Notes: generated by a model from the letters alone, not told the origin. Counted from the stretch's first letter, positions 51,640 to 57,245 are shown. The stretch: DNA of 64,000 nucleotides from Acidobacteriota bacterium (GCA_021781495.1 JAJXWS010000001.1:73551-137550), one strand, 5' to 3'. Numbers and translations are program-made.

Positions 51640-52716
51640 GTGTCCAAGCCAAAACGATCGACGACCGCAAAACCAAGACCCCTTCCCAATGGCGATAAAC
51701 CCATAGGATTGCGCGACTTGGCTGCCTACCTCGGCCTCTCCCGCTCCACCGTCTCCCTCGTCCTCAACAACTCCCCCGTCGCCCAGGGACTCAAGCCGGA
51801 GACCCGCGAGCGCGTCTTCAAGGCCGCCCACGAACTCAACTACCGCGCCAACTACTTCGCCCGGGTCCTCAACAAGAAGCGCAGCCACATGATCGGCATC
51901 CTCTCCCCCGACCTCACCGAGGGCTACGACTCCGAGCTCCTCACCGCCATGGAGGACCTGCTGATCGAGCGCAACTACGTCTACTTCATCTCCAGCCACC
52001 ACTGGAACCACAACCGCATCCAGCAGCTGCTCCAGGTCTTCGTCGAGCGCGGAGCGGAAGGCATCATCCTCATCAACACCCCCGTTGACGCGGCCCCCAA
52101 CATCCCCCTCGTCTCCATCGGCAGCCTCACCCACGACTTTCCCGTCACCAGCATCGGCATCAACAACACCCTCGGCGTGCGCAAGGCCCTCGACCACCTC
52201 TACGCCCTCGGTCACCGACGGATCGCCTTATTCAAAGGCCACGCCGGTTCCAGTGACACGGAATCCCGCTGGCAAGCCGTTCAGCACGGCTGCCAACAGC
52301 TTGGCCTCGCGGTAAACGAGCGCCTGGTTGTTCAGCTTGAGCGCATCCGCGACGGCCTCGACCCCATCCGCGAGGGCTATCTGGCTGCCAACCGGCTGCT
52401 CCAGTCCGGTGAGCCCTTCACCGCCCTGCTGGCCTTCAATGACATGTCTGCCATCGGCGCCATCCACGCCCTGCGAGACGCCGGCCGCCACGTCCCTCAG
52501 GATGTCTCCGTCGTCGGCTTCGACGATGTGCAGGCCGCCACCATCGTGCAGCCCGCGCTCACCACCGTGCGCCAGCCCCTCGACCGCATGGGCGTCCTGG
52601 CCACCACGGAGATGCTCGCGCGCATTGAAGAGCCCACCCATCCCGTGGAGCAGTTCTGCCTGGAGCCCGAGCTGGTGGTGCGCAAATCCTCCGCGCCCTG
52701 CCCGCAGCCCGCCTAG
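51640..52716 (+). CDS. LacI-family transcriptional regulator
   Basis: GLRDLAAYLGLSRSTVSLVLN HTH, YRANYFARVL, FNDMSAIGA, VSVVGFDD, PALTTVRQP. Confidence 0.93.
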   Translation: MSKPKRSTTAKPRPLPNGDKPIGLRDLAAYLGLSRSTVSLVLNNSPVAQGLKPETRERVFKAAHELNYRANYFARVLNKKRSHMIGILSPDLTEGYDSELLTAMEDLLIERNYVYFISSHHWNHNRIQQLLQVFVERGAEGIILINTPVDAAPNIPLVSIGSLTHDFPVTSIGINNTLGVRKALDHLYALGHRRIALFKGHAGSSDTESRWQAVQHGCQQLGLAVNERLVVQLERIRDGLDPIREGYLAANRLLQSGEPFTALLAFNDMSAIGAIHALRDAGRHVPQDVSVVGFDDVQAATIVQPALTTVRQPLDRMGVLATTEMLARIEEPTHPVEQFCLEPELVVRKSSAPCPQPA

Positions 52717-52756: not shown

Positions 52757-52993
52757 TTACTCTCCGCCGCAAAAACCGCCGCCACCGCAGCACGGCCCGC
52801 CCATCCCGCACGCCGGGCCGGCCTCCGAGTAGCTCGACTGCCCGCCCTTGGAGATGGCTCCCGCGCCGCCGCTGATCAGCCGCCGCAGCGCCGCCCCGCA
52901 CTTCGGGCATGCCGCCAGCGGCGCATCCGACATCTTCTGGCGCTGCTCAAAGCAGTATCCGCACGTCTCGCACTTGTACTCGTATGCTGGCAT
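52757..52993 (-). CDS. FmdB-family Zn-ribbon regulatory protein (CxxC_CxxC_SSSS) with Cys/Gly tail
   Basis: MPAYEYKCETCG..FE..QKMSD.....CPKCG...RRLIS; tail CGMGGPCCGGGGFCGGE. Confidence 0.88.
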   Translation of the reverse strand: MPAYEYKCETCGYCFEQRQKMSDAPLAACPKCGAALRRLISGGAGAISKGGQSSYSEAGPACGMGGPCCGGGGFCGGE

Positions 52994-53095
52994 CGATCAA
53001 TACCTCAATCCTGGGTTGCTGAAATCCATTATAAAAAGGCCGCCGCGCACTCTGCCGGCGGGTTTGCGCCACCGGCAGGGTCCGCTGTCAGGCCA

Positions 53096-53485
53096 TTACT
53101 TCTGTGCTGCGCTCTTCGCCATCTCCTGGTGAAGTGCCGCCAGTTCCTGCATCTTTGTCGCCGAGTCCTTCAGCGACTGCGCAATATATTCGCAGTGGTT
53201 CACCGTCCCCGTTGCCCACTTCGACGAGCTGATCAACGGATTCTTCCTGTACTGCTCCGCCATCTGCGCATGTTCCTGCGACTCGGCAAGATACTTCCTT
53301 GCCTGCGCGTCATAGTACTGCGCAATGCGCTCATGTTCCGCTGGGGTCTTGGCCGTGGCAATCAGCGCCATCAGCTGCTGCCTGCTCAGTTTCTCCGCGG
53401 GGTGCTGGTGCTGCATGGTCGCCTGGCCATAGGCGGAGAAGGCCAGCGCAAACGTCAGTGCGATTACGGCAAATGTGTGTTTCAT
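53096..53485 (-). CDS. Secreted helical His/Met-rich protein, putative metal-binding
   Basis: AGGAG RBS; signal peptide; MQHQH, AKTPAEHERIAQYY, EHAQMAEQY, NHCEYIA, LHQEMA. Confidence 0.8.
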   Translation of the reverse strand: MKHTFAVIALTFALAFSAYGQATMQHQHPAEKLSRQQLMALIATAKTPAEHERIAQYYDAQARKYLAESQEHAQMAEQYRKNPLISSSKWATGTVNHCEYIAQSLKDSATKMQELAALHQEMAKSAAQK

Positions 53486-53582
53486 CGGAATCTCCTATGC
53501 GAGTTGCATTCGATCGACTATCGGCTCTCAGTAGCCTCAACGGCCCTGAAGAAGGAATCGTTGCGGTGTCGCGTAGGAAGGT

Positions 53583-53999
53583 CTAGATCCGGAAGACTCG
53601 CAGGCAAAGATAGCGTTCATTCTTCGGCGTGCGCACATCTCTTCGCGCCGGGCGGCCGCTCATGCCCACGCGCTGCGCACGCACGGCAACTGTATCCGTT
53701 GCCTGCGCCGCCAATGCATTCTGCCCCAGTGTCGGTTCCATGCGCAGAATCGCTCGCCGCGCTACGGAAACCCGGCACCCCTGCTCGCCGCACGCCGCCT
53801 CAAACAGCGCTCGCGGATTCGCAACTCTGTGGCTCGCCACGCCGGCGGCCATGTTCATGCCGCTCATCTGCATACAGCAGCCTGCGCCGCAGTGGCTCTG
53901 CGCGCACGCAGCCGGAATGCACTCCTGCTCTCCCATCGCCTGTTGCAGCGTAAGCAGCGACGCAAGTACAAGCACCACGAGTTGGACGGCTCGCTTCAT
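53583..53999 (-). CDS. Cys/Met-rich signal-peptide ORF ending YLCLRVFRI, candidate regulatory upstream ORF
   Basis: Start moved to ATG 53999; MKRAVQLVVLVLASLLTLQQAMG, then ECIPAACAQSHCGAGCCMQMSGMNM...CGEQGC; co-oriented 97 nt upstream of 53096..53485. Confidence 0.65.
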   Translation of the reverse strand: MKRAVQLVVLVLASLLTLQQAMGEQECIPAACAQSHCGAGCCMQMSGMNMAAGVASHRVANPRALFEAACGEQGCRVSVARRAILRMEPTLGQNALAAQATDTVAVRAQRVGMSGRPARRDVRTPKNERYLCLRVFRI

Positions 54000-54041
54000 C
54001 CTCAGAGCAATCCAAGTATCCCGCGCTGCAGGAATCCCTGA

Positions 54042-54057
54042 TGTGACTCGCGTCACC
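54042..54057. promoter_or_regulatory. CRP/FNR-family-like box (class II position for the Cys-rich ORF)
   Basis: TGTGA-CTCGCG-TCACC; centred 41.5 bp from a +1 predicted from GATACT (54020-54015, minus strand). Confidence 0.55.
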
Positions 54058-54074
54058 CCCTGCTTGCGGCACTG

Positions 54075-54090
54075 AGTGACTTCCATCACA
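54075..54090. promoter_or_regulatory. Second CRP/FNR-family-like box in the divergent intergenic region
   Basis: AGTGA-CTTCCA-TCACA, 33 bp from the first box. Confidence 0.55.
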
Positions 54091-54232
54091 GACGCGCTTC
54101 TTCCGCCGCATTCCAATAAAGACAAATTGTGAGCAGGCACGCATGGCAGCTCCTGCACGTCGCTTCGGATCGGCTGCACGACCCTCTGCCATCCAGTCCA
54201 TGCATCCCTTGCTTCCCTTGGAGGAAATCAGG

Positions 54233-55684
54233 ATGAACTCCCTCAGGACCTGTCTGCGCTCCGGCGCGTTTTATGCCGCAATCCTTTCGCTATCCATACT
54301 GCTCACCTTCTCGCTCAGCGCCTGCTCAGGCGGCAGTTCCGCCTCCACCGGCACCACTCCGCCGCCTGCCGCCAAGACCATGGTCCAGGTCAACGTAGGA
54401 GACTCGCCCGCGGACTGGATGCTGGCCTTCTCCATGAACATCAGCTCCATGTCCCTCACCGGCAGCAACGGCTCCGCAGCCGTCGTCTCCACCGCCACGC
54501 CCATGGAGATGATGCACCTGATGGGCACCATGCAGCCGCTCGCCATGGTCAACCTGCCGCAGGGCACCTACACCGGCGCCACCGTCACCATCGCCTCCGC
54601 CACCGTGGTCTACATGGATCCCACCACCAAGACCGCCGTACAAAAAACCATCAACGGCCCCATCACAGGCAATGTCACCTTCGCCTCGCCCGTCACCGTC
54701 GGCTCCACGGCCATGGCCATGGGCTTTGATCTCAATCTCGCCAAATCCATCACCACAGACTCCAGCGGCAACCTCGCCATGTCCCCCGTCTTCAACACCA
54801 CCACGGGCATGCAGGGCTCCGGCAATCCTCTCGACTTCACCGACGGCGGCATCGAAGAGTTGATGGGCACCGTCTCCGGCGTCTCCGGCAGCAGCTTCAC
54901 CATGACGTCCATGCAGGCCGCGCAAAGCTTCACCTTCGCCACCAACGGCTCCACCGTCTTCAGCAACATGACCATGAGCAGCATGGCCAGCGGCATGATC
55001 GTCCTCGTCGACGCCACCCTCCAGTCCGACGGCTCGCTCATGGCCACCAGGGTCCAGTCCATGTCCGGCGCGGGCGGCATGATGGGCGGCGGCATCGTCA
55101 CCACGGTCACCGGCCAGCCCGTCACCTCGCTCACCATGATCATGCAGAACGGCGCTGGCACCGGCATGATGTCCTCCTACTTCGCCTCCGGTGTCACCGT
55201 CAACATGAGCGGAAGCACCTCCTACGAGATCAACGAAGACAACGTCGATATGTCCAACCTGCCCTTCACGCCTCGCTTTGACGCCAGCAACATCTACCCC
55301 GGCCAGGCCGTCATGCCCATCAGCACCACCGGCATGATGAGCGGCAGCGGCGGCATGATGGGTGGCGGAGGCATGATGGGCGGCACCACCATGTCCGGCA
55401 CCATCAGCGCCACGGAGCTGGCCCTCATGCCCCAGGGACTCAGCGGCGCCCTCGGCGCGGCGGTCTCCAGCGGCACGTCCTCCACCTTCACCCTCACCCT
55501 GCCGTCGGACTGCGCCTTCACCACCCTCACCGGCGCCACCAGCGTCACCGTCTATCAGCAGACAGACACCATCCTCGCCGGCACCTCGCCCCTTGCCAGC
55601 GGAGCCTCCGCCCACGTCTTTGGCCTGCTCTTCAACGACGGCGGCCAGTGGAAGATGGTCGCCGCCCGCATCGGCGCCAACTAA
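54233..55684 (+). CDS. Met-rich lipoprotein with DUF4382-like and DUF5666-like beta domains
   Basis: Start moved to ATG 54233 (GAGGAA RBS); lipobox FSLSAC; VQVNVGDSP...LP.GTYTGATVTI...GFDLNL (DUF4382-like); GTVSGVSGSSFT...TNGSTVF...VLVDATLQSDGSLMATRV (DUF5666-like); Met/Gly tracts. Confidence 0.72.
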   Translation: MNSLRTCLRSGAFYAAILSLSILLTFSLSACSGGSSASTGTTPPPAAKTMVQVNVGDSPADWMLAFSMNISSMSLTGSNGSAAVVSTATPMEMMHLMGTMQPLAMVNLPQGTYTGATVTIASATVVYMDPTTKTAVQKTINGPITGNVTFASPVTVGSTAMAMGFDLNLAKSITTDSSGNLAMSPVFNTTTGMQGSGNPLDFTDGGIEELMGTVSGVSGSSFTMTSMQAAQSFTFATNGSTVFSNMTMSSMASGMIVLVDATLQSDGSLMATRVQSMSGAGGMMGGGIVTTVTGQPVTSLTMIMQNGAGTGMMSSYFASGVTVNMSGSTSYEINEDNVDMSNLPFTPRFDASNIYPGQAVMPISTTGMMSGSGGMMGGGGMMGGTTMSGTISATELALMPQGLSGALGAAVSSGTSSTFTLTLPSDCAFTTLTGATSVTVYQQTDTILAGTSPLASGASAHVFGLLFNDGGQWKMVAARIGAN

Positions 55685-55757
55685 CGACACACCCGCGGGC
55701 GGCGCGCCCCTACCGTGCCGCCTGCGCCTTCCTCCGCCCTGTCAAAGAACTCCTCCC

Positions 55758-55800
55758 TGTGAGTCCGCTCACAATGCCCCTTTTCGAATCGCCCTATAAT
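55758..55800 (+). promoter_or_regulatory. Class II CRP-family promoter of the peroxiredoxin operon
   Basis: Perfect TGTGA-GTCCGC-TCACA (55758-55773) and perfect TATAAT (55795-55800); box centre at -41.5 from the predicted +1 (55807). Confidence 0.75.
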
Positions 55801-55912
55801 GCTTGCCGAATGCCGGTGGCCATCCGCGCCAAAGCGCGCCGCCACCGGCGCCGGAACGCCGCGGCATCGCCCCTGGGCCTGCGCGGCGTCCAGCACGAAA
55901 GGGGTACATCGC

Positions 55913-56602
55913 ATGTCAGTGCTAGAAGCTGTCAAGCAAGAATCGGCCACCGTCGCCTCCGATCCCGTCGTCGCTGCGCATCTGCCGCGCCTCGGCATGT
56001 CCGCCCCGCTCTTTGAGGCCGTCACCACCCACGGCAAAATCCGCCTCGAAGACTTCCGCGGCGGCTGGGTCGTCCTCTTCTCTCACCCCGCCGACTTCAC
56101 TCCCGTCTGCACCACGGAGTTCCTCGCCTTCGCCCAGATCGCGCCCGAGCTGCACAAGCGCAACACCGAGCTGCTCGGCCTCAGCATCGACAGCACCAGC
56201 TCCCACATCGCCTGGGTCCGCAACATCAAGGAGAAGTTCGGCGTCGACATCCCGTTCCCCATCATCGCCGACTCCAACAAGCAGGTTGCCACCCTCTACG
56301 GCATGATCATGCCCGGTGAAAGCACCACGGAAACCAGCCGCTGCGTCTTCATCATCGATCCCGCCGGCGTCCTCCGCGCCATGATCTACTACCCCCTCAC
56401 CACCGGCCGCAACACCGACGAGATTCTCCGCGTCATCGACGCGCTGCAGACCACCGACAAGCATCGCGTCGCCACCCCCGCCAACTGGCACGCCGGCGAC
56501 AAGGTCATCGTGCCGCCGCCCGCCACCATGGAAGAGGTGGACGCCCGCCTCAACGCCGGCTACGAATGCACCGACTGGTACTTCTGCAAGAAGGCTGTTT
56601 AG
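55913..56602 (+). CDS. Peroxiredoxin (Prx6/archaeal thioredoxin-peroxidase type)
   Basis: Start moved to ATG 55913; LFSHPADFTPVCTTEF, YYPLTTGRNTDEILR, VATPANW..GDKVIVPP, C-terminal YECTDWYFCKK. Confidence 0.93.
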   Translation: MSVLEAVKQESATVASDPVVAAHLPRLGMSAPLFEAVTTHGKIRLEDFRGGWVVLFSHPADFTPVCTTEFLAFAQIAPELHKRNTELLGLSIDSTSSHIAWVRNIKEKFGVDIPFPIIADSNKQVATLYGMIMPGESTTETSRCVFIIDPAGVLRAMIYYPLTTGRNTDEILRVIDALQTTDKHRVATPANWHAGDKVIVPPPATMEEVDARLNAGYECTDWYFCKKAV

Positions 56603-56615
56603 GAGGAAGCTCGTC

Positions 56616-56837
56616 ATGGCCTGTATCGGCAGTCAGGGGGAGTTGACCGAGTCCGCCCGCAGGATGCTCGCGGCCCTCGCTCCCCCCGCAACCCCTGAGG
56701 ACGTAGCCGCGCACACCGGCCTGCCGCTCTTCCGCGTGCGCGCCGGCCTGCGCGAAATGGCAGAGGCCGAACTGGTCCAGGCGCAGGACGGCCGCTACGC
56801 CGCAACCGAGCGCGGCCTCTCGTTCCTCTCCCGTTAG
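56616..56837 (+). CDS. Small winged-helix protein with N-terminal Cys, coupled to the peroxiredoxin
   Basis: AGGAGG RBS 13 nt after the Prx stop; MACIG...PEDVAAHTGLPLFRVRAGLREMAEAELV...GRYAATERG wHTH pattern. Confidence 0.75.
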   Translation: MACIGSQGELTESARRMLAALAPPATPEDVAAHTGLPLFRVRAGLREMAEAELVQAQDGRYAATERGLSFLSR

Positions 56838-57011
56838 CAAGCACCCATCCGGACGCGGGCCATGCTCAAAGCTGGCCCGCCCCGGACGATCCTGCCCCGC
56901 CCGGCATCCTCCGCCCGCAACACCTTCTGCAGGCACAGATCTTCGCGATATGCTGTAGGCAAAGCCGCCCCGGCCGCACGGCAACACCTGTGTGCCACGG
57001 CTCGCAAGTCC

Positions 57012-57245
57012 ATGCTGCCCCTCACCGAACTCGGCAAAGCGCTCCTCGCCATCGGCGTGCTGCTCGTCCTCGCCGGCGCGGGCCTCATGCTGGCCGCGCG
57101 CATCGGCCTGCCGCTCGGGCGTCTCCCCGGCGACTTCGCCTACCGGGGCAAGCACGTCTCCGTGTTCTTCCCCCTCGGCACGTCCATCCTCATCAGCATC
57201 GTGCTGTCGCTGGTCTTTTACCTGCTCTCGCGCCTCCACCGCTAG
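57012..57245 (+). CDS. DUF2905-family small membrane protein
   Basis: Start moved to ATG 57012; LGKALLAIG...LGRLPGDF.YRGKHVSVFFPLGTSILISIVLSL signature. Confidence 0.85.
   Translation: MLPLTELGKALLAIGVLLVLAGAGLMLAARIGLPLGRLPGDFAYRGKHVSVFFPLGTSILISIVLSLVFYLLSRLHR

Follow-up and report, generated by a model that had tools for sequence, protein, structure and literature searches.

Three separately conserved units and a candidate exported translational sensor under a putative FNR-type box in an acidobacterial genome

The genes considered here lie at positions 52757-56837 of a 64,000-nucleotide (nt) stretch of DNA from an Acidobacteriota bacterium (GCA_021781495.1 JAJXWS010000001.1:73551-137550), the whole of which we call the window. 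Six open reading frames (ORFs) are present at the places where a first-pass annotation, made from the sequence alone, had put them. Three are read from the minus strand: an FmdB zinc ribbon (52757-52993), a family-less secreted protein of 129 residues that we call sec129 (53096-53485), which has a signal peptide and conserved His, Cys and Met residues, and a 138-residue leader ORF with 8 Cys and 8 Met (53583-53999), which also has a signal peptide and ends in LRVFRI-stop. The other three are on the plus strand: a Met-rich lipoprotein of 483 residues with the lipobox LSAC and a DUF5666 domain (54233-55684), a Prx6-type peroxiredoxin (Prx; 55913-56602) with AhpC-TSA, 1-cysPrx_C and PRK13189 matches, and a 73-residue winged helix-turn-helix (wHTH) protein (56616-56837) with weak wHTH matches and an N-terminal MACIG. 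The first-pass annotation read all six as one compact periplasmic copper or silver buffering and thiol-peroxide module. On balance, we favor a different picture, in which the stretch holds three separately conserved transcription units (leader-sec129, the lipoprotein gene and Prx-wHTH) and an unrelated FmdB gene, with the three units belonging to one FNR-type low-oxygen regulon. We also consider it probable, to about the same degree, that leader-sec129 is a two-layer system in which FNR-type transcription is combined with leader-controlled translation.

The leader ORF, earlier described as a Cys/Met-rich uORF, is a real conserved gene. A word-based protein search with the leader found only itself, and it has no Pfam match; the family was gathered from syntenic ORFs in seven loci and then by profile search. 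The seven syntenic leaders share a signal peptide, a C...C-x3-CC cluster and a (V/I)(F/L)RI-stop end, and the profile search returned 240 representative proteins at E<=1e-3, about 125-145 residues long and matched from end to end. The N-terminus of the window copy, MKRAVQLVVLVLASLLTLQQAMG, is basic, then hydrophobic, with a small-x-small end, a pattern that by inspection is kept across 150 members; after the signal peptide come a C-x9-C-x3-CC cluster, a variable linker and the C-terminal LRVFRI-stop. C27, C37 and C41 are invariant in a seven-sequence alignment, and the family consensus reads C..(9-12)..C-x3-CC ... C-x-M ... C-x3-CC. Among the best 150 family members, 113 end in VFRI and 140 in RI. 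The last four codons of 67 distinct leader genes draw on four Val, two Phe, all six Arg and two Ile codons; this synonymous variety indicates selection on the peptide, not on the RNA. The same 67 genes stop at TAA (40) or TAG (27) and never at TGA, which accounts for 37% of stops in the genome background. RF1 reads both TAA and TAG, so the absence of TGA may point to a pause in termination that is specific to a release factor. This family is previously undescribed and occurs in Acidobacteriaceae. One degraded instance was seen in a Terracidiphilus metagenome-assembled genome (MAG), in which the leader is frameshifted and sec129 truncated (L012:4939-5736), either a decaying copy or an assembly error.

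What could a conserved peptide end do for the gene that follows it? The sec129 Shine-Dalgarno (SD) sequence, AGGAG (53492-53496, minus strand), is sequestered in an intergenic helix by an anti-SD, UUCCUACGCGA (53569-53579, minus strand), that begins 4 nt past the leader stop. The anti-SD/SD duplex in the window is worth -14.8 kcal/mol versus a shuffled mean of -6.2 (p=0.002-0.003). A CUCCU-type anti-SD stands directly 3' of the leader stop across the family, and the region between leader and cargo, 97 nt in the window, has a median length of 97 nt and a range of 60-135 nt; wherever a sec129 locus includes a leader, the leader comes first and about 97 nt separate the two genes. In minimum-free-energy (MFE) folds, the SD pairs with the 9-13 nt that follow the stop in 12/12 distinct regions (duplex z -1.6 to -5.3), and a helix of at least 6 bp forms in the MFE folds of 69/72 loci; the metagenome scan, for which 8 closer leaders were used, gave 80 loci biased to the ...Y[IL]L[FLY][QH]VFRI subfamily. 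The flanks of the SD covary with their partners, as ACGCGA/UCGCAU in the window, GACGUU/AACGUC in L041 and UUGCG/CGCAA in L048. An anti-SD:SD helix with covariation is thus present. Its paired segment, from about +1 to +15 past the leader stop, falls within the footprint of a ribosome that has the stop codon in its A site.

From these elements we infer a mechanism. The leader would be exported co-translationally, so that its Cys/Met cluster is in the periplasm while the ribosome still holds its C-terminus, R-Y-x-L-x-x-V-F-R-I. By dwelling on the TAA/TAG stop, the ribosome would cover the anti-SD 1-15 nt downstream, the SD of sec129 would be freed, and the periplasmic metal-binding cargo would be made. 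In other words, the leader appears to gate the translation of sec129, with arrest, a metal ligand and a switching-on effect as the predicted particulars.

The genes that follow the leaders speak to what is being sensed. sec129 has >220 homologues and no Pfam or NCBIfam family; among 41 homologues, H51, H72, H97, C98, H119 and M122 are invariant. AlphaFold2 predicts a helical hairpin (pLDDT 84; helices 48-81 and 90-128), and the register of this hairpin would have H72 face H97/C98 and H51 face H119/M122, giving two possible sites. We propose that sec129 is a periplasmic soft-metal-binding cargo. For 75 distinct leaders the next gene is of the sec129 type in 28 cases, a long Cys-rich type in 22 and a short CC-repeat type in 14. 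The long cargo is a secreted protein of about 100 residues with 17-23 Cys (e.g. ...CSGEKCCKNGCDKNCC...), and the short one is a secreted CC-repeat peptide of about 57 residues; a Pfam scan of the Cys-rich cargo proteins gave no match. There is even a conserved chromosomal slot, consisting of a NuoI-like 4Fe-4S ferredoxin gene, the leader, the cargo and metH, in which the cargo varies by genome among sec129 and the long and short Cys-rich types (L041:4924-10479, L045, L058, L066, L070, L075, L080, L107). In one further locus (L044:3400-8390) the order is leader, sec129, a second leader ending ...SILRI-stop, and then OEP, CusB-like and ACR_tran genes, with the CusB-like protein carrying a Met-rich YtkA domain. 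The anti-SD of this second leader, UUCCUUCCUUCUC, pairs with the SD of the OEP/pump gene, GGAGGAAGAG, and the whole second intergenic region (117 nt) folds at -49.5 kcal/mol. In L019, a divergent leader-like ORF ending in TILRV-stop lies upstream of a Tat multicopper oxidase gene, the possible pair being about 4 kb from a lipoprotein gene; having no obvious anti-SD, this ORF is only a possible family member. The best evidence that leader-sec129 handles thiophilic (copper/silver-type) metals in the periplasm comes from these cargo contexts, and we regard such a role as well supported by the gene arrangements. The contexts also yield three families of candidate periplasmic metal binders that lack annotation: sec129 and both kinds, long and short, of secreted Cys-rich protein.

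Several smaller observations attach to these loci. The L044 contig carries TrbL/TrbC conjugation genes and a Fic gene, and the leader copy there is without an FNR-type box. In L048 (4495-4818) and L049 (3594-3920), a secreted protein of 107-108 residues with the pattern CGK(K/Q)HM...DAEC..ECVK and a sub-threshold DUF5818 match follows sec129. We also considered sec129 as a relative of Spy, CpxP, ZraP or CnrX, and neither PDB profile searches nor Foldseek showed a link: the search of the PDB by sequence profile and Foldseek returned only helical-hairpin noise (EsxA, designed bundles and the fungal His-rich effector 5los at E 0.6). The resemblance to CnrX, ZraP and Spy is that of a periplasmic helical hairpin with sets of His, Met and Cys, with no Pfam or Foldseek match behind it.

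The leader has a close counterpart in a studied system. In Rhodobacter capsulatus, CutF is a Sec-exported protein with a Cys motif that stalls at a C-terminal proline motif with periplasmic copper, and the stall melts a stem-loop that hides the cutO ribosome-binding site (PMC9973294; bioRxiv 10.1101/2022.11.11.516240). CutF-like/DUF2946 leaders include CopL, CruR, SilD and CusD (PMC9973294; bioRxiv 10.1101/2025.02.05.636593). Like CutF, the VFRI family consists of Sec-exported proteins of <150 residues that have a Cys metal motif and a conserved C-terminal motif of the stalling type, followed by an intergenic stem-loop of about 100 nt that hides the ribosome-binding site of the next gene and by metal-homeostasis genes downstream (OEP/CusCBA in L044, possibly the multicopper oxidase in L019). 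Unlike CutF, the VFRI leaders are without a significant DUF2946 match, have (R-Y-x-L-x-x)-V-F-R-I at a TAA/TAG stop instead of a poly-proline, EF-P-dependent motif, serve a main cargo that is new (sec129 and secreted metallothionein-like proteins), occur in Acidobacteriaceae and have an additional FNR-type box. We therefore propose, on these likenesses, that the leader is a CutF-like exported translational sensor. The recently discovered principle embodied by CutF, that an exported protein can sense metal while it is still nascent, would then extend to a new phylum, a termination-stage motif and a modular cargo.

Not everything points this way, and the following considerations weigh against a regulated metal sensor. 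The window leader ends RTPKNERYLCLRVFRI and has no Pro-Pro in its last 15 residues; many relatives do carry PP at about -12 (e.g. SPPARYILFQVFRI), and the invariant element is VFRI-stop. DUF2946 (PF11162) matched 0/7 close members at E<=10 and 2/108 wider members, with a best E of 0.16. Neither sec129 nor the lipoprotein significantly matches a known metal-binding structure, and no confirmed copper gene stands beside the lipoprotein gene in 31 lipoprotein loci (one genome per species; 50-72% identity; flanks up to 6 kb) or in L047, the possible leader and multicopper oxidase pair about 4 kb away in L019 aside. Additionally, the same RNA structure would be expected of a plain coupling hairpin that involves no regulated arrest, and this opens the way to a simpler account: the leader would be an ordinary secreted Cys-rich protein, the hairpin would provide mere translational coupling, and sec129 and the lipoprotein would have low-oxygen roles unrelated to metals, for example as envelope chaperones or as partners of the neighboring bc-type complex. 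The RNA helix by itself is compatible with this account, as are the lack of structural matches to metal-binding proteins and the fact that the module abuts a Rieske and cytochrome b-tetrahaem c complex in L008, L010, L012, L013, L024 and L047. However, plain coupling does not explain the conservation of the last residues at the peptide level or the avoidance of TGA, nor why the cargo is swapped for metallothionein-like proteins or a Cus pump while the leader is retained, nor why the invariant residues of sec129 are exactly metal ligands. We consider it unlikely, while granting it a serious hearing.

The second layer of the proposed system, transcription, is suggested by a palindromic box. The first-pass annotation had pointed to CRP-like boxes in the intergenic DNA, and matches are indeed found there, beginning at 54042, 54075, 54128 and 55758. 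The first, TGTGACTCGCGTCACC (54042-54057), has one mismatch and lies in the leader promoter, its near end 43 nt from the leader ATG and its far end at about -58; the second, AGTGACTTCCATCACA (54075-54090), also with one mismatch, lies in the lipoprotein promoter; a weak third box with two mismatches is at 54128-54143; and a perfect TGTGA-N6-TCACA box (55758-55773) lies in the Prx promoter. This last box is followed by a perfect TATAAT (55796-55801) whose first base lies 30.5 nt past the box center, and the spacing implies class II geometry, with the box centered near -41.5/-42.5. For the leader, a box so near the ATG leaves room for only a very short 5' leader. The motif shows no enrichment across the window (13 matches with <=2 mismatches versus 18 expected), and 4 of these 13 fall in the two promoter regions of the stretch.

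At the scale of the 3.6-Mb assembly, a clearer signal emerges. There are 80 sites with <=1 mismatch, 10 of them perfect, and 50/80 (62%) are intergenic versus 15% non-coding DNA genome-wide; of the permuted half-site controls, six with 14-95 sites are 10-36% intergenic and two with 3-5 sites are 40-67% intergenic. Pfam-confirmed genes behind the best sites encode the NiFe-hydrogenase small subunit, HypC, CcmE and CydA (cytochrome bd subunit I), and further Pfam-confirmed targets are two tandem-Usp proteins, Pta, FeoA, a radical SAM enzyme, a Crp/Fnr regulator itself and a baeRF-family protein; genes for multihaem cytochromes and GAPDH also lie behind best sites. The box is retained in relatives. 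With <=1 mismatch, it lies 130-445 nt upstream of the lipoprotein match in 25/30 related loci, for which the genome-wide density of about 1 site per 45 kb gives a chance expectation of about 0.008 per locus, and about 85-155 nt upstream of the Prx start in 4/5 Prx-wHTH loci with upstream sequence. A box is found <=110 nt upstream of the ATG in 52/72 leaders with upstream sequence, mostly at -52 to -57 and in a few cases further out, to -89.

What protein might read this box? The genome holds only two full Crp/Fnr regulators (cNMP_binding + HTH_Crp_2), at C104:14778-15509 and C52:21083-21835, and both genes are preceded by a box. Each carries a C-x2-C-x8-C motif in its N-terminal part together with the recognition helix (S/T)RETVTR; in the C104 regulator a further, central Cys corresponds in position to FNR C122. 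An R-E-x-x-x-R helix is the CRP pattern and reads GTGA; thus, the helix fits the TGTGA half-site. A Crp/Fnr activator, most likely the one at C104:14778-15509 or its paralogue at C52:21083-21835, would bind the boxes near -41.5 and activate the three units. From the Cys motif and the set of targets, we infer that the boxes define an FNR-type low-oxygen regulon. As in the class II promoters of FNR, ANR and Dnr, there is an autoregulated Crp/Fnr regulator with N-terminal cysteines and a palindromic box about 41.5-42.5 nt upstream of the inferred transcription start, and as in their regulons, cytochrome bd, hydrogenase, Usp and haem/cytochrome genes are targets; the differences are that the half-site here is TGTGA (CRP-like) instead of TTGAT and that the Cys spacing is C-x2-C-x8-C. 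The low-oxygen reading is consistent with published transcriptomes of Acidobacterium capsulatum: at nanomolar O2, its usp genes and a single ahpC homologue are up 13-56-fold (maximum) (PMC11636273).

Two points count against an oxygen-responsive regulon. The regulon statistics rest on our own crude ORF caller, and the Cys spacing of the regulators (x2, x8) is unlike that of E. coli FNR (x2, x5), so that a [4Fe-4S] cluster in these proteins is a possibility, oxygen is a deduced signal and cAMP or another ligand is possible. The box might accordingly be read by a cAMP-CRP-type or other non-oxygen sensor (of carbon/energy, NO or redox state) and mark a starvation or stationary-phase regulon. The box is the CRP consensus and the helix RETVTR is CRP-like, GAPDH and Pta are among the targets, and the departure from the E. 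coli FNR spacing also fits. Against this stand the N-terminal Cys triad in both regulators and the central Cys in C104, a target set (bd, NiFe hydrogenase, HypC, multihaem cytochromes, CcmE, Usp, FeoA, radical SAM) that is typical of FNR/ANR, and the induction of usp and the ahpC homologue in relatives at nanomolar O2 (PMC11636273). We judge a non-oxygen sensor to be rather improbable and retain the FNR-type reading, which would give soil and peat Acidobacteriaceae a first prediction of an FNR-type regulon with its motif. These bacteria are dominant and genetically intractable, and they live at nanomolar O2. One box elsewhere in the genome has a setting of its own: at C165:41944-45949, it has a baeRF-family gene on one side and a phosphoribosyltransferase/dienelactone-hydrolase fusion on the other, with a 936-residue P-type ATPase next, a cluster that resembles dormancy/hypoxia loci of other phyla.

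Taking both layers together, we tentatively advance a fuller proposal, which we hold with less than even confidence: that the leaders are an undescribed family (at least 240 clusters) in which VFRI arrests the ribosome at TAA/TAG in a metal- or thiol-responsive manner, melting the helix and turning the cargo on, behind an FNR-type oxygen gate. If this is true, metal buffering would be reserved for anoxic conditions, in which Cu(I) toxicity is at its highest. A related possibility is that the leader monitors export or periplasmic thiol oxidation (Sec/Dsb capacity or redox state), as do SecM, VemP and MifM. The leader shares with exported arrest peptides of this monitoring type an N-terminal export signal, a variable spacer and a conserved C-terminal peptide, together with a scheme in which the stalled ribosome melts an SD-masking helix and the proposed arrest has the stop codon sitting in the A site; stop-codon arrest is documented for other exported uORF peptides. 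A signal peptide, a spacer of about 60-110 residues and a conserved C-terminus are the criteria used for monitoring substrates, the Cys-rich cluster would suit a thiol sensor, and FNR control links the leader to oxygen, the driver of disulfide formation. The leader differs in that its Cys/Met cluster is an added element, its arrest is a prediction, and its next gene is no protein-localization component: the next genes are never Sec, YidC or Dsb and are instead metal-type cargo or a Cus pump. Moreover, CutF, the nearest architecture to have been studied experimentally, is copper-responsive. An export or thiol monitor therefore seems to us a doubtful alternative to a metal sensor.

How do the three units relate to each other? 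The six-gene synteny was sought in 31 lipoprotein, 6 wHTH and 13 sec129 loci and was not found, so the neighborhood conservation on which a single island would depend did not materialize. All 31 lipoprotein loci are labeled Acidobacteriota, mostly Acidobacteriaceae, and are MAGs; none of the Prx, wHTH and FmdB genes is in their flanks, or in those of L047. What does recur is that sec129 adjoins the lipoprotein gene in 8 loci (L001, L007, L008, L010, L012, L017, L024, L047), the pair being usually divergent with the Cys/Met leader ORF in between. The lipoprotein gene is not immediately upstream of Prx-wHTH in the other 5 loci with that pair, one of them from the same genus, and only in the source genome is Prx-wHTH beside the lipoprotein. 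Because these neighbors do not co-occur and FmdB has its own signals, we divide the stretch into three independent conserved units and a bystander. It is very unlikely that all six were inherited together as one periplasmic island dedicated to copper/silver buffering and thiol peroxide: every product is rich in Cys, Met or His, boxes are present in the intergenic DNA and the leader family's cargo is of the metal type, but Prx, wHTH and FmdB are missing from the 31 lipoprotein loci and L047, the lipoprotein is missing at the 5 other Prx-wHTH loci, including the same-genus one, FmdB is boxless and sits beyond a hairpin that resembles a terminator, and the regulator acts globally, its roughly 50 sites lying mostly at respiration, hydrogenase and stress genes.

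Parts of the island idea nevertheless survive. Co-regulation holds to the extent that one conserved box is common to all three units, while FmdB has none and the regulator is of the global FNR type and not a copper regulator. A periplasmic soft-metal role holds for the leader-sec129 pair, where it is well supported, and is plausible for the lipoprotein, but it does not extend to a six-gene island. Low oxygen is the unifying theme, since the common regulator is global and FNR-type and not copper-specific, and metal handling and peroxide removal are separate sub-functions within it. For annotation, the six-gene copper-island picture is replaced by three defined units.

The FmdB gene was judged to be an adjacent bystander outside the system. 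The protein itself is a zinc ribbon, as had been noted, and has a Gly/Cys tail: Pfam Zn_ribbon_8 (PF09723) matches at 1.5e-16 (60.6 bits versus a cut-off of 34.4) and TIGR02605 at 2.4e-19 (69.2 bits versus 31.3), and the CxxC...CxxC ribbon is present. The gene is absent from 49/49 related loci examined, and it has its own TATAAT with no box upstream. Between it and sec129, a GC-rich hairpin followed by UUUUUAUAAU (53031-53094, minus strand) is the probable intrinsic terminator of the leader-sec129 operon, and its U-tract overlaps the TATAAT of FmdB. The RNA of 52990-53100 (minus strand, 111 nt) folds at -41.9 kcal/mol, with the main hairpin at nt 7-63 and then the U-run, a structure that is suggestive of termination with a z of only -1.66. 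A consensus terminator/promoter scan found no sigma-70 promoters and missed the sec129 hairpin, which was found by folding, because its loop is long.

The lipoprotein is extreme in its composition. Its 43 Met make up 8.7% of residues versus a genome mean of 2.1% and place it 2nd of 2710 called ORFs of at least 100 residues, the top one being an unverified 125-residue ORF. The earlier description of it as Met-rich and DUF5666-like stands, with DUF5666 the sole Pfam match (4.8e-10); the alternative label DUF4382 falls away, as PF14321 is unmatched even at E<=10. Mean column identity is 69%, and many Met are invariant, as in E92 M93 H95 M100. AlphaFold2 (pLDDT 76) predicts an N-terminal beta-sandwich and OB-like barrels with disordered Met/Gly loops between them. 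In the Foldseek top 50, which consist of generic OB folds (cold-shock domains, SSB, LysRS), CusF is not listed, and there is no Pfam match to CusF (PF11604). The OB-like barrels and MxM/MMGGGMM loops give the lipoprotein a resemblance to CusF and to the Met-rich Cu(I) sites of CopA, PcoA and CueO, but without a Pfam or Foldseek match it is no member of the CusF family. Its distribution is patchy, with a close orthologue in 2/41 genomes of the genus, and its recurrent neighbors are the leader-sec129 pair and, in several genomes, a bc-type gene set. Cu(I) is more toxic without oxygen. By analogy, and given its composition, CusF-like fold class, neighborhood and this anoxic toxicity, it is plausible that the lipoprotein binds Cu(I)/Ag(I); alternatively, it may be a methionine-based oxidant sink or have a role with the bc-type complex. 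Within the proposed scheme it would probably act as a periplasmic sink for Cu(I)/Ag(I) or for oxidants. The bc-type set consists of a protein of 439-460 residues with an N-terminal CxxCH and no Pfam family, a Rieske protein and an 889-residue cytochrome b fused to four c-type haem domains; it abuts the sec129/lipoprotein module at L008:1-4515, L024:26-1911 and L047:4483-8384.

The third unit joins a familiar enzyme to an unfamiliar partner. Prx is an ordinary Prx6-type (archaeal/Aquifex-type) enzyme by its profile matches: PRK13189 (NF009668) at 303 bits versus a cut-off of 211, PF00578 at 5.4e-32 and PF10417 at 1.5e-14. The peroxidatic Cys lies in PVCTTE, and the C-terminus has a C-x5-C; the best solved relative, 5ovq (6e-87), has the same YEC.DWY.CKK tail. 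It had been called a three-Cys peroxiredoxin; we count four Cys, of which three are those of the Aeropyrum/Aquifex type. It shares PVCTTE, the C-x5-C arm and PRK13189 with the Prx6-type enzymes (PDB 5ovq; Aeropyrum pernix ApTPx 2cv4/1x0r) and differs only in its obligatory downstream MACIG-wHTH partner and its FNR-type box. The wHTH gene starts 13 nt past Prx, with its SD overlapping the Prx stop (close translational coupling), and it is directly downstream of this type of Prx in 6/6 loci, one of them a second copy within the source assembly. The gene is rare, found in 5/151 genomes of the family. Its homologues are 72-83 residues long, and 72/75 have an N-terminal MxC[I/M/L/V] (mostly MACIG, with Cys3), 67 of those being single-Cys; the window copy has weak wHTH profile matches only and belongs to no curated family. 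The operon would remove peroxide, and the single-Cys wHTH protein could be a redox partner of Prx. Peroxidase-to-transcription-factor thiol relays exist in Orp1-Yap1 and Tpx1-Pap1, and a thiol relay between Prx and Cys3 of the wHTH protein is an attractive idea by analogy with them. Here too, a thiol peroxidase is genetically coupled to a protein with a DNA-binding fold and a single conserved Cys; the wHTH partner differs in its size, 73 residues, and in having no curated family, and the likeness is drawn from the genes alone. The MACIG-wHTH partner is a fourth unannotated family to which this analysis points. The second copy, at a contig end (C172:1984-2778), comprises a Prx (85% identity) and a wHTH protein (62% identity), and is either a paralogue or a related-strain contig in the bin (contamination estimate 4.7%).

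Of the genes around the three units, a LacI-type repressor (51640-52716, plus strand), identified from the ORF listing and profile scans, precedes the FmdB gene. A DUF2905 membrane-protein gene (56862-57245) lies 3' of wHTH only in the source genome, with a GH5-like gene also beyond; the longest DUF2905 ORF (127 residues) probably starts too early relative to the true start. As had been observed, the window is without a P-type ATPase, a multicopper oxidase or an RND pump; such genes are on C165, C112, C43 and others, or at C196:8.7-22 kb. Outside the window, at C43:80259-98732, the genome's sole multicopper oxidase gene stands beside an ORF of 118 residues with 7.6% Met, and about 10 kb beyond it are genes for a haem-porin-like protein, cytochrome c and Rieske/cytochrome b. 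This region is probably the canonical copper locus of the genome.

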